Part shown: in pieces, positions 1 to 20,829 of the stretch
Layout: the number at the start of each line of letters is the position of its first letter
Numbering within the stretch: the first letter of the stretch is position 1
Sequence record: PP968062.1
Reading direction: 5' to 3' (one strand)
Source of the DNA: Pseudomonas phage HPP-Temi
DNA: 64,000 nucleotides
Made by a program: the position numbers and the translations under genes
The notes under the pieces: generated by a model
Databases searched by the model: none
What the model was told of the DNA's origin: nothing
The model's input: only the letters and a program-made list of their open reading frames with translations

Positions 1-1464
1 GGTGAAGCTACCGATACCAAGAACTACGTTGCTAGAAGCGAAGCCTTTACGTTCCAGGCGAGACATGATCTGCTCGGTACGGTCTACAGTGATCGAGTCA
101 CCATAGATCAGGCCAACGTATTCGTTCAGGCACTTGAAGCCTTTACTGTTCTCAGTACCACCGAAGGAGTCCCACAGGACTTCAATTGCACCGCGTACTT
201 CCACCTCAGGGATTTCAGTCTCAGAGAGGAAGTTAGACAGACTGACAGCGAGGTCGTTGATCTCGTAGTACTTACCACCTACGCTAACAACTTCGTAACC
301 AGCGTACTCAATGGAACCGTATTCGGCAATGTGTTTCTCGAAATCAACACGATCAGCGAATTTAATCGGATAAGCCATGTAGCCAGTGATGACTTTAACC
401 GGATCACCAGAGTCAGGACGAACAACAACTTTCGCCAGACCCAGCTCGTTCTTCAGACGACTTTCGATTTCTGCACGGATGCTCGGGAGAACATCAGAGA
501 TAACACCCCAGAAGTCGAAGGAATCACAGACCAGCGAAATAATGCCTTCCGGGACTTTCTGAAGAATGATCTCCAGGATGTAGTCACGTTCAGCTTCCAA
601 CCGCAGTTGGTCATGTAGTTCCGGAGTGATCACAGTACCTTCCTCTTGGAGGAAGTTGATCTTCATTTGCAGACGGTACAGGATGTTGGTTGTGGCGACA
701 GCGTGTTCAGTTGCAGTAACTGATGCACCCAACAATTCAGTATCACTGTTAGCACCGTAATACATCTCAGCGTAATCGAGAGCCGGGATGGTATCGGTAC
801 CAGCGAAGCTAGTCAGGTGAGCTGTACCAGAACGCATTGCATCTTCAGGACCACTCATACCACGGAAGCTGAAGTCGTGTGCCTGGAACTTGACGTGCTC
901 ACGGTTATCGCAGGTGCGGTCAGCGTAGTGGTTCAGTACACGCTGATACTCAGCTGCAATAGTTGCGTTACAGATCATCTTCCAGTTGTAGGCACTGACG
1001 ATGGTTTCCAGGTAGTTCACCAGCCAGTAGTGATCATCGTCATCCAGGCTGTTGTAAACCACAAAGGTAGGTACGCCAACATCTACACGTTCGCCTTCGT
1101 CAATAGCCAGCACCGTCAGAGGCAGGTAGCCCAGAGCATGCAGCTTGTACAGACACTCGTGTTTGATAACGCCTTTACCGCACATGTTGTCGAAACGACG
1201 AGCAGCGCGTTTAACAGCGATTTCACGAGGCAGATTGAAGAAGGTACGATCCCACAGTTCTACCAGTTCGTGCCAGGTACCTTGCAGACCGAAGTTAACG
1301 ACTTTGTTGTCGTAGAACGCAGAACAAGACTTCGACCGCAGGAACTGCTTAGCAGAACGCGGGGTGAAGTTTGCATACTTACGTTCAGTACCTTTCGGAT
1401 ACAGAGCGCCATGGCCAGGTTTATAGCAGTCAGTAGCAGTTGCTGCATAGAGAGCATTAGACAT
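1..1464 (-). CDS. nadV: Nicotinamide phosphoribosyltransferase (NAMPT/NadV-like); 3' end cut by window edge
   Basis: Minus-strand frame open from ATG (complement of 1462-1464, preceded by GAGG SD) to position 1. Translation begins MSNALYAATATDCYKPGHGALYPKGTERKYANF... and ends ...RLERKGFASSNVVLGIGSF, which matches the NAMPT family. Not in the ORF track because it runs off the window. Confidence 0.8.
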   Translation of the reverse strand, partial: MSNALYAATATDCYKPGHGALYPKGTERKYANFTPRSAKQFLRSKSCSAFYDNKVVNFGLQGTWHELVELWDRTFFNLPREIAVKRAARRFDNMCGKGVIKHECLYKLHALGYLPLTVLAIDEGERVDVGVPTFVVYNSLDDDDHYWLVNYLETIVSAYNWKMICNATIAAEYQRVLNHYADRTCDNREHVKFQAHDFSFRGMSGPEDAMRSGTAHLTSFAGTDTIPALDYAEMYYGANSDTELLGASVTATEHAVATTNILYRLQMKINFLQEEGTVITPELHDQLRLEAERDYILEIILQKVPEGIISLVCDSFDFWGVISDVLPSIRAEIESRLKNELGLAKVVVRPDSGDPVKVITGYMAYPIKFADRVDFEKHIAEYGSIEYAGYEVVSVGGKYYEINDLAVSLSNFLSETEIPEVEVRGAIEVLWDSFGGTENSKGFKCLNEYVGLIYGDSITVDRTEQIMSRLERKGFASSNVVLGIGSFT

Positions 1465-1480
1465 ATTTTTGATCCTCGGA

Positions 1481-2368
1481 TTAGAAAACAGAATGGGAGA
1501 AGAATTTCGGGTCACGTACACCATCATGCCGATAATCATTTACAGCGTTAGGATGATAGGTGTTAGTGGTCTGGATATAATCGTAGTATTCGTTCAGTTC
1601 GTCGAAACCCTTGGAGAAAATACCATGGGTTACAAACAGACCCAGTTGATCTACGATGCACTGCTCGTGGATAACCTTAGCAAGTTCAATGAACGTGCGG
1701 CCACCATCACAGATGTCATCGATAACCATCAACTTAGCTAGTCGAGGAACTTCATGGGCATTCAACAGCGACGTGTGGGTGATCTTACCAGTCGACAGTT
1801 CACGGTTCTTACAAGCGTACAGTACGCCAGCAGCACCGATCTCTTTCGCAATGGCTTCGGTCTTTTTACGTGCACCTTCATCAGGGGCAACCAACCACCA
1901 GTCACTCGGATTTTCCAGAAGTTGCCCTTCGACACACACCCAGCTTTTGATGATATCTGCTTGGGTAATCTCGCGGCAATTGTTGATGAGTGGCAGCGAC
2001 ACATTACTGTGAGGATCGTACAGGCATACAGACGTAGCGTCCAATGCATTGATCAAACCAGTCATCACACTAATCGACAGAGGTTCACCTTCATCGCAAA
2101 CACGATCTTGTCGTGCGTACGGCAGATAACCAATAACCAAGTGTATTTCAGGACGAATACGCTGGCGACGAATAGCGTCGAATACCAGGAACAGTTCCAT
2201 GATATCGTCACTATTACGAAGCCAAGCATTGATTATGAATCGTTCGCCTTTCTTTCTGAGATCTTTCAGAGGGATCTTGATACCGATCTCACCGCCAGGG
2301 AATTTAAAGGGTTGACAATCGTAGTGATCTGCCAAGCCGTTACCGTGAAGCTGAGTAATTCGAATCAT
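1481..2368 (-). CDS. prs: Ribose-phosphate pyrophosphokinase family (Prs-like; possibly ADP-ribose pyrophosphokinase Adps)
   Basis: 295 aa. Prs motifs are present: ...GYLPYARQDR... and the PRPP-binding loop VIDDICDGGRTF. AGGA SD before the ATG. Confidence 0.8.
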   Translation of the reverse strand: MIRITQLHGNGLADHYDCQPFKFPGGEIGIKIPLKDLRKKGERFIINAWLRNSDDIMELFLVFDAIRRQRIRPEIHLVIGYLPYARQDRVCDEGEPLSISVMTGLINALDATSVCLYDPHSNVSLPLINNCREITQADIIKSWVCVEGQLLENPSDWWLVAPDEGARKKTEAIAKEIGAAGVLYACKNRELSTGKITHTSLLNAHEVPRLAKLMVIDDICDGGRTFIELAKVIHEQCIVDQLGLFVTHGIFSKGFDELNEYYDYIQTTNTYHPNAVNDYRHDGVRDPKFFSHSVF

Positions 2369-2393: not shown

Positions 2394-2416
2394 GGGGACC
2401 GAAGTCCCCGTTCGGG
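2394..2416. terminator. GC hairpin ggggac-cgaa-gtcccc plus second small hairpin
   Basis: Inverted repeat seen directly; lies between the prs start and the rtcB stop. Confidence 0.5.
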
Positions 2417-3670
2417 TTAGCCCTTGACGCAAACAATCTGACGCAGGGTGTGGACGATCTCAATGAGGTCATCCTGAGCAGCCATTACGTCTTCAATGTT
2501 CTTATAAGCCTTTGGAGTCTCGTCGATCACGTCAATGTCTTTCCGGCATTCTACACCGGCAGTATCACGAGCATGATCTTCAAGAGTGAAAGTCTTAGCG
2601 GCTTGGGTTCGGGACATGACACGTCCTGCTCCGTGCGAACACGAACAGAAGGACTCGCGGTTCCCTTTACCTTTCACGATGAAGCTCTTAGCGCCCATCG
2701 ATCCAGGGATAATACCGTACATGCCTTCATCTGCACGCACAGCGCCTTTACGAGTTACGGATACTTTCGCACCGAAGTGGTTCTCGAACGACACGTAGTT
2801 GTGGTGACAGTTTACAGCAGTAAGGCTAGTGTTGATAGGCCGACCCATGTAGTCAGCCACAGCCTCGATTGTTGCACGCATCATGATCGTACGGTTGAGA
2901 GCAGCGTAACGCTGTGCCCAATGTACAGCCTCGATGTAGTCGCTGTAGTACTTGGTACCTTCCGGCAGATAAGCGAGGTCCTGATCAGGCAGATTGATGT
3001 GGTAAAGCCGCATCTCCTCTTTTGCTTTCTCGATAAAGTACCGACCAATTGCGTTACCGATTCCACGAGAACCCGAATGGAGCATGATCCAAACTCGATC
3101 TTGTTCATCCAGACAGATTTCTACGAAGTGGTTACCAGTACCGAGAGTACCTGCGTGGTTGAAAGCACGGTTAGCAGCCTTACCCAGTTTCGGGTGTTTA
3201 GCCACGATGAGCTTCAGTTCCTCTTCAAGCTTCTTAACCTGAGCTTGGAGCTCCGGTTCGAGTTTCTTGTAAACGAGGTTGAAGTCACTCCATGCGCCAC
3301 GATCATTCGGTCCGCCATTGTCAGTACGACCATGAGGGATCCGAGACTCAATACGGTAACGCAGATGTTGCAAGCCACGAGTCATGTCGTTAGCTGTCAG
3401 ATCAGTCAACTGTGCTGCCATTCCACAGCCAATGTCAACCCCTACCGCAGACGGAATGATTGCACCCCGCGTAGCGATTACGGAACCGATGGTTGCACCG
3501 GTACCAAGGTGGACATCAGGCATTACAGCCAGATGCTTATAAATGAACGGGAGTCCCGCAATGTTCTTCAGCTGACGTTTTGCATCAGCTTCAACAGGGA
3601 CGCCTTTAACCCAAGCTTTAATTGGGAATTCATTTTGTTCGTTCAGCATAACGTATTTTTGAGTAGTCAT
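2417..3670 (-). CDS. rtcB: RtcB-family RNA ligase (3'-phosphate/5'-OH)
   Basis: 417 aa. RtcB signatures HAGTLGTGNHFVEI, HSGSRGIGN, NCHHNY and SHGAGR are all present. Confidence 0.85.
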   Translation of the reverse strand: MTTQKYVMLNEQNEFPIKAWVKGVPVEADAKRQLKNIAGLPFIYKHLAVMPDVHLGTGATIGSVIATRGAIIPSAVGVDIGCGMAAQLTDLTANDMTRGLQHLRYRIESRIPHGRTDNGGPNDRGAWSDFNLVYKKLEPELQAQVKKLEEELKLIVAKHPKLGKAANRAFNHAGTLGTGNHFVEICLDEQDRVWIMLHSGSRGIGNAIGRYFIEKAKEEMRLYHINLPDQDLAYLPEGTKYYSDYIEAVHWAQRYAALNRTIMMRATIEAVADYMGRPINTSLTAVNCHHNYVSFENHFGAKVSVTRKGAVRADEGMYGIIPGSMGAKSFIVKGKGNRESFCSCSHGAGRVMSRTQAAKTFTLEDHARDTAGVECRKDIDVIDETPKAYKNIEDVMAAQDDLIEIVHTLRQIVCVKG

Positions 3671-3806
3671 TGTAGACGCTCCGAGAGTTTTAAGGTTTAG
3701 GAATTCAACGAGTTAACGTTGTGCCAAGGTCGGGATCGCAGAATTCCATGGACAGGTAGAGTAATGTCATGCCTGTCCGTATTAGATAAGACTTTTGAGT
3801 AAATTG

Positions 3807-4391
3807 TCATCGGTCCGATTCAACGGACATAGATAACTCTTTATGTTTTCTTCGCCTTTCGACATCGGCGAACCAAGGTCTTACACTGAGCCACATTGCA
3901 GGCCAACTAAGAATAGCAGCTATAGCCATCCATACTGCGCTGAGTAATACCCATGCATCGTTACCATCATCAACATCGCGTGGAGCTATGTCTAGTTGAT
4001 AACCGGTTCCAACGGGGACATGGTGATATGTGTAATCACCGAGCTTGGTTTCGTATACGAAGGGAACACCTTTCATTTTCCCTTCCCAACGACCCTTTAG
4101 CTCGGTATAAACACCGTTCTTGTACTTGTGAGATTCTTCCCATTTCCAGGTCAGTACAACCTGGGTCTTACGTTTGGTAACGTAGTCAGAGAAGAATGAG
4201 TTGTAGACTGCACCACCCATAAATGCTAAGCAGATTAGGTAGAGTACCACACAACGCAGTTTAACCCACTTGGAGATTGGTACATACGGCTCTTGTTTCA
4301 TGGTTATCGTACAGCCGGTTGCGTTTGCATAACCCAAGGGATTCCTTGTGGCCATTGCATATATTGCAGCTGCCTCCGGAGTTATATTCAT
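3807..4391 (-). CDS. hypothetical membrane protein
   Basis: 194 aa with two hydrophobic predicted TM segments (LICLAFMGGAVY..., AWVLLSAVWMAIAAIL...). Confidence 0.4.
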   Translation of the reverse strand: MNITPEAAAIYAMATRNPLGYANATGCTITMKQEPYVPISKWVKLRCVVLYLICLAFMGGAVYNSFFSDYVTKRKTQVVLTWKWEESHKYKNGVYTELKGRWEGKMKGVPFVYETKLGDYTYHHVPVGTGYQLDIAPRDVDDGNDAWVLLSAVWMAIAAILSWPAMWLSVRPWFADVERRRKHKELSMSVESDR

Positions 4392-5215
4392 TTAGGATTC
4401 CCATGGATAAGCTGGAACGTGTCGAACTTGTATTGATCAACGAAGTACCATGCGAGTTCACTCAGCTTAAAGATATCCGGACGTTCGTATTCACCGAAGT
4501 CGGGTTTCTCTTTAGCCAAATGGAAATCGATGAAACGGTCCAATACAGGACAACGATCGATCAAGTCTTGTTCAGTGGAACCTACCTTACAGTTGACCAG
4601 TTCCTGAATACGTTTGTACAGGGTAGGATCAGACAGAATCGGTAGGAGTTCATGGAATACCATCGGTGGATGTTCACGACTAGTCTCAACCCACAATGCT
4701 GCTAACAGTGGACGGAGAGCATAGAAGTATTTCTTCATGCGGACTTTCTCATCCGACAGCCAACGCATCTTGGTTTGCTTGGCCATGGAGATATAGTGCA
4801 TGAAGCTCGATTCGGGAATGAAGTGCTTGATAGCGTAATCACGAATCAGTTTGTAATCCCACTCGATCTTACGGTAAACGATCGGGGAGTTCAACCATTC
4901 CAACAGAGTCGGGTTAGACTTGTAAGCCAGTTGAAGTGTCTTGGTGATACTCCAACCAGCCAGATCGAGTTCCTTGGAAACCATCTCTTCGATGGTGTCA
5001 CGACCTTCGTTATCAACCCGGACATAATGGCTCGGATGGTTAACGTAGATGAAGCGAACATCGTAGTCGCTATTAGTAGAAGCGAAACCCCAACCACGAC
5101 TACCGGACTCACAGGCGTAAATGATCTTTACACCATACTTCTGTTCGATACGAGTTAACTCGGCGTCTATAACTGCACGCATCTCATCACTAACAGGGTG
5201 ACGTGGATCCATCAT
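4388..5215 (-). CDS. Pol-beta-superfamily nucleotidyltransferase (GS-x9-DxD)
   Basis: 275 aa. N-terminal motif YACESGSRGWGFASTNSDYDVRFIY fits hG[GS]x9-13Dh[DE]h of minimal nucleotidyltransferases. Start overlaps the upstream stop (ATGA-type coupling). Confidence 0.5.
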   Translation of the reverse strand: MMDPRHPVSDEMRAVIDAELTRIEQKYGVKIIYACESGSRGWGFASTNSDYDVRFIYVNHPSHYVRVDNEGRDTIEEMVSKELDLAGWSITKTLQLAYKSNPTLLEWLNSPIVYRKIEWDYKLIRDYAIKHFIPESSFMHYISMAKQTKMRWLSDEKVRMKKYFYALRPLLAALWVETSREHPPMVFHELLPILSDPTLYKRIQELVNCKVGSTEQDLIDRCPVLDRFIDFHLAKEKPDFGEYERPDIFKLSELAWYFVDQYKFDTFQLIHGNPK

Positions 5216-5619
5216 TTACCTACCTTTTCAAGTTTGAGTTTCTCTTCATTGCCCGTGTCCAAATACATGAACATCGAATTTCCCAGTAGGTTGTAATACA
5301 TCCAACCTTCCTTAACCACTTGATCGCCATACGTCAGAGGAATGTTCAATTCGTAAATGGCGTCATAAGGGATGACTACAGGATCTTTGTCAGGCTTGTT
5401 GAGGATGAGTGCATCGTCAGTAAGCTCAAGCCATTGCTTACGACTGATGACCCCAAGACCGATACTGAATTCGCTACCTGGGTCTTTCCCATTGAAAATA
5501 CCACAACGGACAGCAGGGTCAACGCGGTCACCAGCGATACAGATTTTCAACGGTTCGGGATTCACACCCATGAGTTCAACAACCAGTTCCAGTTGACGCT
5601 TGAGTTCAATCTTGTTCAC
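5212..5619 (-). CDS. hypothetical protein
   Basis: 135-aa ORF, translationally coupled to its neighbours. Confidence 0.4.
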   Translation of the reverse strand: MNKIELKRQLELVVELMGVNPEPLKICIAGDRVDPAVRCGIFNGKDPGSEFSIGLGVISRKQWLELTDDALILNKPDKDPVVIPYDAIYELNIPLTYGDQVVKEGWMYYNLLGNSMFMYLDTGNEEKLKLEKVGK

Positions 5620-6226
5620 AGTGTAAATTCCTTCGTGTTGTATTGACGTGCAGAGTCAGTCCACCATGTAGGTGTCTGTGCGTAGTAGTACTCACCAAAG
5701 ATACAAGTGGCTAAGGTTTTATCCAAAGCTTCCTGATAAGACAGCTCGCCATCTTTAGTAGCGAAGTGAACCATGTTGTTGAAGCAGGTGATAATGTCAG
5801 CGTTTTCTTTTGTGGAGAAAACAACAGTACCCTTGGCTCCCACTTCGGAATGGATCATCGAGCTCCACGGACGAACACCGCGATCAGTGACCAGATAGAT
5901 ATCTTGTACAGCTGATACGGAAAAGAACGTACGAAGAAGGTTGCTGTAATCGGGTAGGTCTTGCTCGAACAGAATATCGAGGATCTTACAGACCTTATCG
6001 ATCTTCTTCATTTTCTCGGTGTAACGTGCACCGCCATCATTCTCAGTGCAACCGATATTGAAGATGATACTGTAAATGGATTCCACAAGCTTACAGCATT
6101 TGTAGACGTACGGAGTTCCCTTTACTTTAGGAGTCCATACGAAAAGATTGCTCTTTCCTGGATTAGGTTGCTTGAACTGATGGATGCGGTACGGAATACC
6201 TTTTTCAAACAGCAAGAAGTCCATTA
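5616..6226 (-). CDS. hypothetical protein (start moved to the internal Met after the terminator hairpin)
   Basis: The ORF track gives 5616..6383, but that N-terminus reads through the 6252-6275 hairpin. MDFLLFEKGIPY... at 6226 is preceded by GGAGAAAATA-ATG. Confidence 0.45.
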
Positions 6227-6251
6227 TTTTCTCCAAAGGAAATAAGGAAAT

Positions 6252-6275
6252 AAAGCCTCCCCGAAGGGAGGCTTT
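6252..6275. terminator. hairpin aaagcctccc-cgaa-gggaggcttt, bidirectional
   Basis: Perfect 10-bp stem, 4-nt loop, T-run after it on both strands. Confidence 0.6.
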
Positions 6276-6282
6276 TATGTTG

Positions 6283-6543
6283 CTAACGATGCCCTTCGTG
6301 AGTATCGAACTCCAGATCCAATACCACGTTGGTGAATTCCTCCAGCGTACCTTCATCGAAGATACGAGGTTCACTGTCGTCACGATGCATCATACCGACA
6401 GGAGTCTGGTCCCGAAACACCATTAACAAGTCGTGTTTTACCACGACATGGTGATCTTCCCCTACGGAAAGATCTTGGATACGCTGCCAGCGGCTGCGCA
6501 GTAAGCTGCAAGCGACCCATACGGATTTCAAACGTTCAGCCAT
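6283..6543 (-). CDS. hypothetical small protein
   Basis: 86-aa ORF lying between two terminator hairpins. Confidence 0.35.
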   Translation of the reverse strand: MAERLKSVWVACSLLRSRWQRIQDLSVGEDHHVVVKHDLLMVFRDQTPVGMMHRDDSEPRIFDEGTLEEFTNVVLDLEFDTHEGHR

Positions 6544-6634: not shown

Positions 6635-8068
6635 TTAAACAGCAACTTTACCAGCAATGTGCGGATGGAACTGGTAATCCAGGATCTCGTAATCTTCACG
6701 AGTAATATCCAGGAACGGCTTACCTTTGGCCTCAGGCTTGAAGCGGATGGTAGGAGTAGGATAAGTATTGCGGGAACGTTGCAGTGTAACTTGTTCTTCA
6801 TGGTTACTGTAGATATGGCAATCGCCACCAGTCCAGATGAACTCTTCTGCTACCATGTTAAACTGATTCGCCAACTGATGAGTCATCAACGAATAGAACG
6901 TGATGTTGAACGGATTCCCAAGGAAGTTATCGGAAGATCTTTGATAGAGCTGACAGCTGATCCCACGGGAAGGAGCTTTATGCTCATCCAACCAAGCTAC
7001 TACAGCCTCATCAGTAGCGGCCGCATCACCACGCCAAATCCTCAGATGGGCTTTGACTTGTTCTGCGTTACCGAACGGAGGTTGACCACGAGTAGTTCCA
7101 CCACTGTGTTGGTCGTGATAAGCATCCTCTTCGAATTGGCTTTGATCCAGAGCCTGCACTCTTTCGTCTACGGTCAGCTTACGAGTCCAGAACTGAATGA
7201 AGGCATGACACGGAGGCAATGCTTGATCTTCAACCAGACGAGGATCCCAGGCGCAGATGATAAGACGACGACTATCTGGGTTATGTTTAAGTTGCCACAG
7301 AAGTTCTTGAACCTGATCCACACGGCGACGGATAACACATTCATCTTTCGTGTAGTCTTCGCCAGGTACGTCAACTACGAACTTAAAGCCGCGCTTCTCG
7401 TAATTAGCCCAGTCTACTTTAGGAATGATACGAACATCATCGATATCACGCCAGGTTTTACCATAGACCGGACCAAGATCACCGCCAACTAAACGGAAGG
7501 CAGACAACAGACCATCGCTGTCTTTAATCACGATCTTTGCATCACCGATGACAATACGATATACACGTAGAGCCATTCCATAGTAGTCGAATGCATCGGG
7601 ACCAGGACCGAAACGACTTACATCGGCCCACGTCTTCAGATTAATTAGAAGTAGTGCCGGTTTGTCCTGTTCAGGATCAATCCACTTCCAATCGATATCA
7701 CCGATCTCATTGCTGAAATGCATCTCAAACGGAATGTTCTTGAACTTCTTCTGAACAGCTGTAGTCAGCCATTCGTCGGAAACGCGTTCGAATACTTCGG
7801 TACCCGGTTTAACCCATTCGTTCCAGATGGTGACGTTCTTGCTCAGGAGATATTCTAGGCGAGTGTCACCAGACTTCATCCAGTTGAGTTCTTCTTCAAC
7901 GGAAGGCAAGTGGATCTTCTTGGTGGTTACTACCGGAAGGTTTCCGTTACGGAGATCATAACGGAACTGCCTACCGAACAGAGAGGTCGTACCAGTGCCG
8001 GTACGATCCCCTTTGAATACACCGTACTTCTGTGTATCTTCCAGTAACTGTAGGTATTGATGCATCAA
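6635..8068 (-). CDS. thyA: Thymidylate synthase family (ThyA or dUMP hydroxymethylase-like) with three large insertions
   Basis: 477 aa. DRTGTGTTSLFGRQFRYDL, LPVVTTKK, DLGPVYGKTWR, PPCHAFIQFW (catalytic Cys), SCQLYQRSSDNFLGNPFNI and TGGDCHIYSNH align with E. coli ThyA. About 112 aa, 25 aa and 72 aa are inserted relative to the 264-aa enzyme. Confidence 0.8.
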   Translation of the reverse strand: MMHQYLQLLEDTQKYGVFKGDRTGTGTTSLFGRQFRYDLRNGNLPVVTTKKIHLPSVEEELNWMKSGDTRLEYLLSKNVTIWNEWVKPGTEVFERVSDEWLTTAVQKKFKNIPFEMHFSNEIGDIDWKWIDPEQDKPALLLINLKTWADVSRFGPGPDAFDYYGMALRVYRIVIGDAKIVIKDSDGLLSAFRLVGGDLGPVYGKTWRDIDDVRIIPKVDWANYEKRGFKFVVDVPGEDYTKDECVIRRRVDQVQELLWQLKHNPDSRRLIICAWDPRLVEDQALPPCHAFIQFWTRKLTVDERVQALDQSQFEEDAYHDQHSGGTTRGQPPFGNAEQVKAHLRIWRGDAAATDEAVVAWLDEHKAPSRGISCQLYQRSSDNFLGNPFNITFYSLMTHQLANQFNMVAEEFIWTGGDCHIYSNHEEQVTLQRSRNTYPTPTIRFKPEAKGKPFLDITREDYEILDYQFHPHIAGKVAV

Positions 8069-14337: not shown

Positions 14338-14660
14338 CGTACGCCAGGGGGTGTTTGAATGTGGATAAACCGCTTTCTCAACCCAGGAAGGAAGAAAGGG
14401 TCACCTGCAAAACGGCCGGTTACAGAGTTGTAACGGAACCAGTAGCGTTTGAACTTGAAGCAACGTCTACATCCTGGTTCAGCTTGAATAGTCACTAACC
14501 ATTCATCATCGAAAAGGTCATCCATCTCGACGGTGATTGAGTAAGCATTATCTATACGCCCTTTACGGTCCCGGACTGTAATACAATCCGAGAGGTTTCC
14601 GTATTTGAAGATGACATGTTCGAAATTGTTATCTAGTCTAAGTGGGATCGTTAGTTCCAT
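14328..14660 (-). CDS. hypothetical protein (start trimmed to MELTIPLRL)
   Basis: The track ORF 14328..14756 overlaps the upstream gene by 118 nt. The internal Met gives a 22-nt overlap instead. Confidence 0.35.
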   Translation of the reverse strand: MELTIPLRLDNNFEHVIFKYGNLSDCITVRDRKGRIDNAYSITVEMDDLFDDEWLVTIQAEPGCRRCFKFKRYWFRYNSVTGRFAGDPFFLPGLRKRFIHIQTPPGVRLP

Positions 14661-14988
14661 CTTCAACCTCCAACTCGAATGTAACCGAGATATAGCGAGA
14701 ACGATAGTTAGGACTAACGAACGTTTCAAAATGGTTCGACCCATATTGAAGTTCAACGTAGGCTACAACAATACCTTGCTGATCACGAGGTGTAATGTAG
14801 ATGGTATCAACTAACCCATCCACATTCTTCGAACGATTAACAGACCAACGGAATTCGTCAGTCTGCTGATTCTTGGATAGGATCTCTATCCCAGTGATCA
14901 CTTGGGGTAATGTGAGATCCAGGTTTTCTACAAAGAGGGATTTGAGTTTCCCTCGATATACAGAGAAAAGATCGATATGCGTTTGCAT
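14638..14988 (-). CDS. hypothetical protein
   Basis: 116-aa ORF. Confidence 0.4.
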   Translation of the reverse strand: MQTHIDLFSVYRGKLKSLFVENLDLTLPQVITGIEILSKNQQTDEFRWSVNRSKNVDGLVDTIYITPRDQQGIVVAYVELQYGSNHFETFVSPNYRSRYISVTFELEVEDGTNDPT

Positions 14989-16945: not shown

Positions 16946-19535
<2,590 letters not shown>

Positions 19536-20184: not shown

Positions 20185-20829
20185 TTATACCCGTGGCAGA
20201 ATAACCTTATCTGCCTGTTTCATGTACTTACCACCACGATCAGCATAGGACGTTTCACAGTCTTGGTCGAGATCATGGAATACCAACTGCAACACGCCTT
20301 CATGCGCATAGAACACGTTAGGACGGTTAGTTGTATTCTGGAACTCAAACGTGATGTGTCCTTCCCAACCCGGTTCGATCGGAGTGCACAGGCAATTCCA
20401 GCCGGCGCGAGCGATGGTTGATTTACCGATACACATTGCGATTACATTCCGAGGCATACGGACGTACTCTTTCGAGTGAGTCAGCAGGAATCCGCCCGGA
20501 GGAACCACAACCTTGTCACCGTAAACAGTGTCGAACAGATCTGGACTGATGTTCTTGTAATCCAGTACAGGATGTTCAAGTTCTTTACCTGTTACCCAAG
20601 CTTTAAAACGTTGCCAGAAAGTGAACTTAGGTAGAGGCTTGAATACTTTAAACTCAGTACCTGCACGAAGATCATAACCACCAGAAGACAGTCCATAGGA
20701 AGCGATACGCTTACCTTGACTATCTTCCTTTACGGACATACCGTGGAAAGGTTCGATCATGGGACCATGAGCACCAACCATTGCGCCTTCGCAATATTCA
20801 CGGATTGTTTTATCAGAAAGAACGGTCAT
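20185..20829 (-). CDS. dcd: dCTP deaminase family (Dcd / dCTP deaminase-dUTPase-like)
   Basis: 214 aa. Motifs SYGLSSGGYDLR and IEPGWEGHITFEF match the Dcd/dUTPase beta-clip family. Confidence 0.7.
   Translation of the reverse strand: MTVLSDKTIREYCEGAMVGAHGPMIEPFHGMSVKEDSQGKRIASYGLSSGGYDLRAGTEFKVFKPLPKFTFWQRFKAWVTGKELEHPVLDYKNISPDLFDTVYGDKVVVPPGGFLLTHSKEYVRMPRNVIAMCIGKSTIARAGWNCLCTPIEPGWEGHITFEFQNTTNRPNVFYAHEGVLQLVFHDLDQDCETSYADRGGKYMKQADKVILPRV

Follow-up and report, generated by a model that had tools for sequence, protein, structure and literature searches.

Two pathways by which phages supply NAD+ are the closest described systems to the locus analysed here. NAD+ reconstitution pathway 1 (NARP1) pairs a Prs-like ADP-ribose pyrophosphokinase (Adps) with a NAMPT-like nicotinamide ADP-ribose transferase (Namat). 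It was validated in vivo for Bas63 (Escherichia phage JohannRWettstein; 10.1101/2024.02.11.579819) and in vitro for the Bacillus phage SPbetaL1 (Adps WIT26982, Namat WIT26983; 9w5x, 9w5w). NARP2, known from the Vibrio phage KVP40, consists of the Nampt NadV and the Nmnat NatV, whose genes are not adjacent to each other. No phage with both NARP1 and NARP2 was found by Osterman et al. (2024; bioRxiv 10.1101/2024.02.11.579819). A namat gene stands beside adps, on the same strand, for 97% of the Adps-clade genes.

We analysed a 64,000-nt stretch of the Pseudomonas phage HPP-Temi genome (PP968062.1), hereafter the window, which is 96.5% identical to the phiKZ-like Pseudomonas jumbo phage PA1C. A gene pair at its left edge is very probably a two-gene NARP1 module of a phiKZ-like Pseudomonas aeruginosa jumbo phage. 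The finding as such is already known and adds no new biology: the pathway, the diagnostic motif and the listing of the PA1C/PS119XW/phiLBG22 group have all been published.

Arrangement and conservation of the gene pair

The preliminary description had claimed a co-oriented pair of NAMPT-like and Prs-like genes with a 16-nt gap, and this arrangement was recovered as two minus-strand ORFs (Table 1). The first gene of the pair, adps, starts with ATG at 2368 and ends with TAA at 1483–1481. The ATG of namat occupies 1464–1462, and its ORF leaves the window at nt 1. The NAMPT-like gene is therefore incomplete, with 488 of its 588 codons in the window; the full-length protein measures 588 aa in PA1C, BRkr and other close relatives. 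On the coding strand the spacer reads TCCGAGGATCAAAAAT, with a GAGGA Shine–Dalgarno sequence 9 nt ahead of the namat ATG. Together the two genes make up a tight unit. In Pfam, the NAMPT-like protein matched NAPRTase (9.6e-23) and NAMPT_N, and the Prs-like protein matched Pribosyltran_N (7.3e-11). The corresponding PHROGs matches were phrog_448 (7e-175, with the full-length PA1C protein as query) and phrog_619 (6.5e-80, with the window protein as query).

Table 1. Coordinates of the gene pair and adjacent elements in the window
Feature	Position	Strand	Remarks
adps, predicted Prs-like ADP-ribose pyrophosphokinase (ADPR-PP synthetase)	1481..2368	-	complete ORF, 295 aa
spacer between adps and namat, 16 nt	1465..1480	-	read from sequence
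namat, predicted NAMPT-like nicotinamide ADP-ribose transferase	1..1464	-	codons 1-488 of 588; 3' end beyond window
terminator-like hairpin GGGGAC-UUCG-GUCCCC	2394..2409	-	terminator scan; marks 5' boundary of pair

A hairpin had been said to bound the pair downstream. The hairpin exists, but it sits upstream of the pair by the direction of transcription and outside 1–2368, 8 nt past the rtcB stop (2417) and 26 nt ahead of the adps start (2368); we assign it to rtcB as a terminator-like element. When folded, the 57-nt rtcB–adps intergenic stretch (2366–2422) gave a minimum free energy of -15.9 kcal/mol (z = -2.25), and the hairpin with its flanks is the same in PA1C and phiHQ except for one base. 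A matching downstream hairpin is found in PA1C, where GGGGAGC-UUCG-GCUCCCC and then a U-tract directly follow the namat stop; here that position falls past the window edge. No copy of the phiKZ early-promoter motif TATATTAC was found ahead of the pair, and its three copies in the whole window are not above chance.

The arrangement was unchanged in PA1C, phiHQ, HHBS36_1, BRkr, phiLBG22 and PS119XW, with 90.6–96.5% DNA identity over rtcB–adps–namat, and their pairs showed strain-level differences only. Tables S1 and S2 of Osterman et al. list the PA1C, PS119XW and phiLBG22 proteins as Adps and "Adps-associated" Namat, and Table S1 records "Namat within 10 genes: Yes" for the PA1C Adps. The order adps-then-namat was also seen in Bas63 (genes 79–80) and SPbetaL1 (genes 190–191), canonical operons that the window pair resembles in gene spacing too, and in the jumbo phages RP31, D6 and Phabio. 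Bas63 shares both the order and the short gap with the window pair, although it is a Felixounavirus of E. coli and the window phage a phiKZ-like jumbo phage of Pseudomonas.

The Prs-like protein and the Adps family

To place the Prs-like protein we compared it with curated models, with profiles of our own and in a tree. It fell below the cut-offs of all 11 curated NCBIfam Prs models. On TIGR01251 it scored 104.6 bits (cut-off 113), near the validated Adps of SPbetaL1 (106 bits), Bas63 (138.5 bits) and FADO (96.5 bits), whereas the Prs of M. abscessus reached 395 bits on this model and 604 on its own equivalog. On the Prs equivalog models the window protein obtained 40–90 bits against cut-offs of 296–536.

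The listing in Table S1 of Osterman et al. was rejected as proof of membership in the Adps clade. The table also includes ordinary bacterial Prs, and we therefore built our own profiles and tree. With the query left out of model building, the window protein scored 257 bits on the Adps-clade HMM (true Prs, 85–138), 149 bits on an HMM made from three validated Adps (Prs, 38–81) and 51 bits on the Prs HMM (Prs, 505–550). In neighbour-joining trees, bootstrapped with a custom distance and neighbour-joining routine, Prs separated from a Namat-linked clade that includes the window protein in 176 of 200 bootstraps (88%), the sister of the window protein being a protein of the Ralstonia jumbo phage RP12. 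Clustering with housekeeping Prs, which the preliminary description had named as speaking against NARP1, did not occur. The profile and tree comparison that it had proposed for telling Prs from Adps thus came down on the side of Adps.

Individual positions pointed the same way. The window protein has the Adps-type residue at all seven alignment columns discriminating between Prs and the Adps clade (G94, P119, S121, V123, G194, G222 and V246). It reads DPHS where Prs has DLHA, and DDICDGGRTF where Prs has DDMIDTGGT. The latter PRPP-loop sequence is identical in the Bas63 Adps and is replaced by DDLSSFGGTF in that of SPbetaL1. The catalytic K187 aligns with K162 of SPbetaL1, and H120 and D217–D218 are conserved in the alignment. 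The window protein and E. coli Prs (b1207) have in common the phosphoribosyltransferase-type fold, a catalytic Lys and His, and the DD motif. Missing from the window protein are the N-terminal beta-alpha unit and the C-terminal helix found in Prs, and its ribose-5-phosphate loop residues differ. The fused Adps–Namat family phrog_12872 matched the window protein (5.9e-39) and gave no match to E. coli Prs. As a discriminator between Prs and Adps, phrog_619 was set aside as weak, with E. coli Prs matching it too (193 bits).

Identity to the nearest validated Adps was 26–37% by BLASTP and 34–36% by tblastn, including only 37% for Bas63 and about 30% for SPbetaL1; the PA1C copy is 99% identical in amino acids. 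By sequence, the Prs-like protein groups with validated Adps and not with Prs.

The NAMPT-like protein and the Namat family

The namat product was 44% identical to the Namat of SPbetaL1, 42% to that of Bas63 and 32% to KVP40 NadV. When the PA1C copy was searched against the PDB, the best match was SPbetaL1 Namat (9w5x, 9w5w; 3e-101), with human NAMPT at about 1e-45. The BRkr protein, which has 93% identity to the window fragment, gave an AlphaFold model (pLDDT 93.4) whose best fold match was 9w5x (TM 0.93); the model is a monomer, and the adenine clamp forms across the dimer interface. SPbetaL1 is hence the best solved-structure match in both sequence and fold. On the Namat half of phrog_12872, the PA1C copy scored 220 bits, SPbetaL1 262, Bas63 225 and KVP40 NadV 79.

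Several comparisons did not separate Namats from Nampts. By overall similarity, H. ducreyi NadV (9ke8; 316 bits) came close to SPbetaL1 Namat (343 bits), and phrog_448 contains Namats and KVP40 NadV alike. The protein also passed the PRK09198 "nicotinate phosphoribosyltransferase" model (442, cut-off 405). Since overall similarity fails to tell Namat from NadV, the assignment depends on three other features: the clamp motif, an Adps partner and the lack of a nearby NMNAT.

One half of the clamp, SCH, has the published Namat motif GSxPhixPhixPhiTRD (PMC12774641). The window protein ends inside it (G485-S486-F487-T488, nt 1–12), and clamp positions 5–11, like the last 100 residues of the protein, were read from relatives that are 93–99% identical. 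The PA1C copy, with 99% identity to the window fragment, has the complete motif GIGSFTYQYNTRDT (GSFTYQYNTRD); that of BRkr reads GSYTYQYNTRD. The SPbetaL1 motif (GIGSFTYQYNTRDTFG) is identical to that of the PA1C copy, and Bas63 has GSYTYQYMTRD. The Namat motif was absent, in the alignment, from KVP40 NadV (GGGLLQQLDRD in the corresponding loop), human NAMPT (GSGGGLLQKLTRD) and H. ducreyi NadV (GAQTYQRNTRD); these Nampts are without its aromatic residues. Among the best 120 homologues, 117 carried the Namat-type motif.

The catalytic positions D12, Y14, F198, R201, D224, H254, R349, D351 and G455–D456 were invariant in the alignment, and S457 aligns with A362 of SPbetaL1. The catalytic residues of SPbetaL1 Namat that we compared (F189, R192, D215, the catalytic His, R306 and D308) are conserved in the window protein.

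The SCL loop spans S37–N53 (nt 1306–1356) and begins S37-A38-K39-Q40-F41, followed by 12 more residues. According to the published rule, the third residue is Arg, or else Lys or Tyr with a stacking fourth residue. The loop departs from this rule, with Lys third, Gln rather than an aromatic residue fourth, and an aromatic residue fifth. Bas63 shares the S-x-K-x-F start, but its fourth residue is Trp (S-D-K-W-F). The window loop is five residues longer than that of Bas63 and nine longer than that of SPbetaL1, in which Arg40 stacks. Like the window protein (588 aa), the Bas63 Namat is of the long form (593 aa), and both have an insertion after the RPDSGDP strand; the first insertion is longer here than in Bas63. 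SPbetaL1 Namat (491 aa) lacks both insertions. In the AlphaFold model of the BRkr protein the two inserted subdomains fold confidently.

Taken with the nearest solved relative and the clamp motif of the PA1C copy, the comparison of NadV with Namat suggested earlier supports assignment of the NAMPT-like protein to the Namat type.

Neighbourhood, alternative readings and predicted role

The pair is flanked by RtcB and, at its opposite end, by two unassigned small ORFs (132 and 68 aa in PA1C). Genes for thymidylate synthase, dCTP deaminase, thymidylate kinase, RtcB and RlaP lie nearby. The order RtcB–Adps–Namat, followed further on by a PHA02142-type RNA ligase and with RlaP nearby, is found both in PA1C-group phages and in RP31, a distant jumbo phage of Ralstonia.

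A search for an NMNAT gene near the pair had been proposed as a check on classical salvage. We ran Pfam and motif scans over ~79 kb, namely the 64 kb window and the 15 kb that adjoin its left edge in PA1C. Among the matches listed for the 71 window ORFs, which covered 25 of the 26 Pfam families hit, and for the 32 PA1C ORFs to the left there was none to CTP_transf_like or NUDIX, and neither an HxGH motif nor a Nudix box was found in any frame of these sequences. The absence of NMNAT from this region disfavours classical salvage. The same two sets of ORFs had no Macro or RyR domain among the matches listed, even at E values up to 1, and the small ORFs that follow namat in PA1C likewise gave no Macro or RyR match. 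The locus has no Macro-domain phosphatase or RyR glycosidase within about two genes, as NARP1-AP (Adpp) or RyDEP-coupled NARP1 would have.

By analogy with the validated homologues of SPbetaL1, Bas63, FADO, Vibrio phage Gary and DyoEdafos, Adps would pyrophosphorylate ADP-ribose (ADPR) on its terminal ribose at the expense of ATP, giving ADPR-PP. Namat would then replace this pyrophosphate with nicotinamide, yielding NAD+ directly, without an NMN intermediate or NMNAT. NAD-cleaving effectors (SIR2, TIR and similar) release ADPR and nicotinamide, so the pair would restore NAD+ in infected cells, and phage replication could go ahead in the face of Thoeris, DSR1/2, SIR2-HerA and related systems.

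The main competing explanation is classical NAD salvage, in which the Prs-like protein makes PRPP, the NAMPT-like protein makes NMN and the host finishes NAD+, feeding the phage's NAD-dependent DNA ligase. The ligase gene reported at 16946–18994, 15 kb off, is real (Pfam DNA_ligase_aden, 2.7e-68, with OB, HHH and BRCT domains). LigA splits NAD+ to AMP and NMN, not to ADPR and nicotinamide; therefore, the pair would not recycle the ligase's own products. Both proteins do bear the Pfam and NCBIfam labels of salvage families, PRK09198 included, and the NAMPT-like protein has high overall similarity to H. ducreyi NadV. Namats also still convert some PRPP to NMN in vitro (PMC12774641), so the pair may also contribute to ordinary salvage. 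Against this stand the failure of the Prs-like protein at every curated Prs threshold, its Adps residue at each discriminating position, and a validated Adps homologue that lacks Prs activity. KVP40 NadV, the NARP2 enzyme, shares the NAMPT fold, the catalytic core and the outcome of NAD+ supply, but it has a Nampt-type loop, prefers PRPP and needs an Nmnat, and 94% of the phages with KVP40-type Nampts encode one. The window protein, by contrast, is nearer to Namats (42–44% identity) than to KVP40 NadV, has a Namat-type clamp and an Adps partner, and is accompanied by no Nmnat in the ~79 kb scanned. The computational tests that we ran (profiles, tree, discriminating columns, clamp motif and NMNAT search) all favour NARP1 over Prs plus NadV salvage, which we consider very improbable as the explanation of the pair.

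An equally small probability attaches to NARP1 chemistry that serves mainly to keep up NAD+ in general over the course of a long jumbo-phage infection, salvaging ADPR and nicotinamide whatever their source, and not to counter defence. The position of the pair amid the nucleotide-metabolism and RNA-repair genes named above would suit such a role, as would the lack of an attached defence-specific partner (Macro-domain Adpp or RyDEP). In Bas63, however, ADPR-PP was detected only with an NAD-depleting system active, and deletion of the pair mattered only on defence-carrying hosts; ADPR and nicotinamide accumulate mainly after NADase activity, and the pathway is almost confined to phages. Least probable of all, to the point of being barely credible, is a variant pathway in which the longer, atypical SCL lets Namat work with another ADPR derivative or donor. 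The extra length relative to SPbetaL1, the Gln where an aromatic residue is expected and the confidently folding subdomains would fit it, but SPbetaL1 has an identical SCH half, accepted Namats differ from one another in the length and sequence of SCL, and the in vivo validated Bas63 Namat has both insertions along with its S-D-K-W-F loop.

A NARP1 module at this locus may also have a wider context. Nucleus-forming phiKZ-like phages keep their DNA out of reach of DNA-targeting immunity, so NARP1 may belong to a conserved cytoplasmic counter-defence block that joins NAD+ reconstitution with RNA repair, a proposal that we hold to be rather unlikely. If true, the block would be co-selected against two kinds of abortive-infection effectors that still reach these phages, NADases and RNases. 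In a lesser version of this proposal, the long, atypical SCL loop and the two inserted subdomains may tune the Namat to another donor or to a partner protein.

The analysis confirms, by sequence, a complete NAD+ reconstitution module in P. aeruginosa jumbo phages of a group with therapeutic relevance. Phages with this module would be expected to withstand Thoeris, DSR, SIR2-HerA and similar NAD-depleting defences, a prediction of use when host ranges are forecast and phages chosen. Public records of the PA1C-group phages still mislabel both genes, and the GenBank entries of the relatives name them ribose-phosphate pyrophosphokinase and nicotinate/nicotinamide phosphoribosyltransferase.

Gene arrangement, relatives and earlier records

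At its left end, the window has genes on the minus strand only. The preliminary description had reported a NAMPT-like and a Prs-like gene, co-oriented and separated by 16 nt, and this arrangement was recovered. The full-length NAMPT-like protein of the Pseudomonas jumbo phage PA1C has 588 aa and matched phrog_448 at 7e-175. A hairpin had also been placed at the downstream end of the pair. The hairpin exists, but its place is the gap that separates the Prs-like start from the rtcB stop (2417), which puts it upstream of the pair and beyond the interval assigned to the module. The 57-nt intergenic stretch that holds it folded with an MFE of -15.9 kcal/mol.

Features of the NARP1 locus and related genes (window coordinates unless PA1C is named)
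Feature	Position	Strand	Details
namat (NAMPT-like ORF)	ATG 1464 to nt 1 (window edge)	minus	488 codons inside window; Pfam NAPRTase and NAMPT_N
adps-namat spacer	1465-1480	minus	16 nt; coding strand TCCGAGGATCAAAAAT; GAGGA ribosome-binding site
adps (Prs-like ORF)	2368..1481	minus	295 aa; Pfam Pribosyltran_N; phrog_619 6.5e-80
Hairpin GGGGAC-UUCG-GUCCCC	2394-2409	minus	between rtcB and adps
RtcB	2417-3670		immediately upstream of the pair
RlaP nucleotidyltransferase	4388-5215		two genes further upstream than RtcB
NAD-dependent DNA ligase	16946-18994		adenylation, OB, HHH and BRCT domains
PHA02142-type RNA ligase	PA1C L001:12650-14005 (outside window)		three genes downstream of the pair

The first 3.7 kb of the window was 96.5% identical to PA1C (305 kb) and 90.6-92.3% identical to phiHQ, HHBS36_1, BRkr, phiLBG22 and PS119XW, and the rtcB, Prs-like and NAMPT-like arrangement was common to all six phages. 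As phiHQ is classified in Chimalliviridae, Phikzvirus, the phage of the window is a nucleus-forming P. aeruginosa jumbo phage. The window and PA1C are not strictly collinear: the ORF at 5616-6383 encodes 255 aa, its PA1C counterpart (L001:20616-21224) encodes 202 aa, and downstream coordinates are offset by several hundred bases. The window thus represents a distinct isolate of the PA1C group.

Judged by sequence, the pair has been correctly recognised as an already catalogued module, NAD+ reconstitution pathway 1 (NARP1), and is not a new one, since counterparts in close relatives appear in the supplementary tables of the discovery paper and NARP1 features in later annotations. In those tables (Osterman et al.), the NAMPT-like proteins of PA1C, PS119XW and phiLBG22 are marked 'Adps-associated', and their Prs-like proteins carry the entry 'Namat within 10 genes: Yes'. 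The later annotations of NARP1 cover P. aeruginosa phage panels and jumbo phages. Homologues of the window Adps were found in 1546 phage records, of which Pseudomonas phages account for 194.

Assignment of the two enzymes

The profile and tree comparisons suggested in the preliminary description favoured Adps over Prs for the first enzyme. On the NCBI curated Prs models, the window protein scored 104.6 bits against TIGR01251 (cut-off 113) and 40-90 bits against the Prs equivalog models (cut-offs 296-536). Validated Adps proteins scored 106 (SPbetaL1), 138.5 (Bas63) and 96.5 (FADO) on the same models, and a true Prs from M. abscessus scored 395 on TIGR01251 and 604 on its own equivalog. Custom profiles were built from sequences of the Osterman et al. 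supplement and E. coli Prs. With 19 Namat-linked sequences, from which the window protein was left out, the profile gave it 257 bits (true Prs 85-138); with the three validated Adps it gave 149 bits (Prs 38-81), and with Prs sequences only 51 bits (Prs 505-550). In a neighbour-joining tree, five Prs were split from all Namat-linked proteins, including that of the window, in 176 of 200 bootstraps, and the window protein was sister to that of Ralstonia jumbo phage RP12.

At all seven columns separating the Prs and Adps groups, the window protein carried the Adps-type residue; these include DPHS (DLHA in Prs) and the ribose-5-phosphate loop DDICDGGRTF (DDMIDTGGT in Prs). The active-site lysine mutated in SPbetaL1 Adps, K162, corresponds to K187. 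Two elements of cellular Prs, the N-terminal beta-alpha unit and the C-terminal helix, are absent from the window protein. The family phrog_12872, in which Adps and Namat are fused, matched the window protein at 5.9e-39 and had no match to E. coli Prs.

For the NAMPT-like protein, overall similarity was not decisive: the PA1C copy scored 343 bits against SPbetaL1 Namat (9w5x/9w5w; 3e-101) and 316 bits against 9ke8, which is H. ducreyi NadV according to Foldseek; human NAMPT matched at ~1e-45. What discriminates is the adenine 'selectivity clamp' described in a structural study (PMC12774641), formed by a loop (SCL) and a helix (SCH). The window stops at ...GIGSFT, with the first clamp aromatic alone inside, and the remaining positions were taken from PA1C, whose copy shares 99% identity with the window fragment. 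Here the comparison of pocket residues, also proposed earlier, pointed to Namat. The PA1C SCH motif, GIGSFTYQYNTRDT, is the same as in SPbetaL1, with GVGSYTYQYMTRDT in Bas63 Namat, and differs from the equivalent segment of PRPP-preferring KVP40 NadV (GMGGGLLQQLDRDT), human NAMPT (GSGGGLLQKLTRD) and H. ducreyi NadV (GAQTYQRNTRD). The Namat-type motif was present in 117 of the 120 best homologues from a 5.8-billion-protein collection, many of which come from contigs of ~300 kb.

Residues contacting nicotinamide and ribose phosphate (D12, Y14, F198, R201, D224, H254, R349, D351 and G455-D456) were all conserved. The AlphaFold model of the BRkr protein (93% identical; pLDDT 93.4) had SPbetaL1 Namat as its top structural match, with a TM of 0.93 over the target. 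The SCL (S37-N53; window 1306-1356) fits less cleanly. Its sequence starts S-A-K-Q-F..., in which the third residue is Lys, as in Bas63, and the fourth is Gln, where the published rule expects a stacking aromatic; the loops of validated Namats are shorter by 5-9 residues. Variability of the SCL among Namats is noted in PMC12774641. Relative to SPbetaL1 Namat, there are two insertions, at window 565-684 (aa 261-300) and 208-381 (aa 362-419), for which AlphaFold confidently gives a helical hairpin and a small alpha/beta subdomain (block pLDDT ~90-97). Bas63 Namat also has the second, and its version of the first is shorter.

Predicted pathway and the ligase alternative

By homology to validated systems, Adps would move pyrophosphate from ATP onto ADP-ribose and Namat would swap it for nicotinamide, giving NAD+ directly. 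The net effect would be to reverse NAD+ cleavage by SIR2- and TIR-type defence effectors.

A Pfam census of the 71 window ORFs detected RtcB, RlaP, thymidylate synthase and kinase, dCTP deaminase, QueC, DSPc phosphatase and other domains, as well as those of the NAD-dependent ligase noted earlier. With this ligase present, the pair could instead belong to ordinary salvage supplying it with NAD+. This is unlikely, because the first enzyme of the pair is assigned to Adps, not Prs, and the pathway would not use the ligase products: LigA consumes NAD+ to AMP and NMN, neither a NARP1 substrate, and NMN would need an NMNAT, which is missing from the window and from 15 kb to its left in PA1C. NAD+ restored by the NARP1 pair would, of course, also serve the ligase.

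An NMNAT beyond the window had been proposed as a mark of salvage; none was found in PA1C over the 15 kb that adjoin the window on the left. Matches among the 32 annotated ORFs there were limited to an RNA ligase, a GNAT acetyltransferase, an HD domain and a few weak hits (E 0.001-0.01). GxFxPxHxGH, loose HxGH and Nudix-box motifs were absent from every frame of the window and this stretch. No CTP_transf_like, NUDIX, Macro or RyR domain was among 25 of the 26 families of the 71 window ORFs, the other one having E 0.0003-0.001. According to Osterman et al., Nmnat is encoded by 94% of the phages that have a KVP40-type Nampt, and the two pathways were not seen together in any phage. In PA1C, neither of the two small ORFs directly 3' of namat (132 and 68 aa) had a match, and the module is therefore plain NARP1, neither the form with a Macro-domain phosphatase (NARP1-AP) nor the RyDEP-coupled one.

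RNA-repair neighbourhood and possible transcription boundaries

RNA-repair genes surround the NARP1 pair. Ralstonia jumbo phage RP31 (L007 3774-10246) has the same gene order, RtcB-Adps-Namat-(376 aa)-RNA ligase, despite a Namat identity of only ~48%. In D6 and Phabio, adps is again followed by namat, but the RtcB link is missing. The order shared with RP31 is the sole mildly new observation, a contextual one. It may mark a counter-defence block that joins RNA repair to NAD+ repair, or may be no more than inherited synteny.

A second UUCG hairpin, GGGGAGC-UUCG-GCUCCCC with a U-tract, directly follows the namat stop in PA1C (L001 ~14640-14695), beyond the left edge of the window. Terminator-like hairpins thus bracket the pair on both sides, the 5' one alone lying in the window. 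In PA1C the hairpin is followed by AAAAAGATTTCAAATCTATATTACTCT, which resembles the phiKZ early-promoter motif TATATTAC; together they suggest a transcription-unit boundary. In the 136-nt gap upstream of rtcB, an inverted repeat GGACAGG...CCTGTCC (window 3735-3780, minus strand) surrounds ATGACATTACTCT, a sequence resembling the TATATTACTCT element after namat in PA1C. This repeat may be a promoter or regulatory site.

Over its whole length (e.g., 6635-8068, 20185-20829), the window carries a nucleotide-metabolism set of thymidylate synthase, thymidylate kinase and dCTP deaminase, an SNF2/ResIII helicase, a QueC-like protein and a protein with a dual-specificity phosphatase (DSPc) domain, together with the phiKZ structural proteins S80 protease and gp244.
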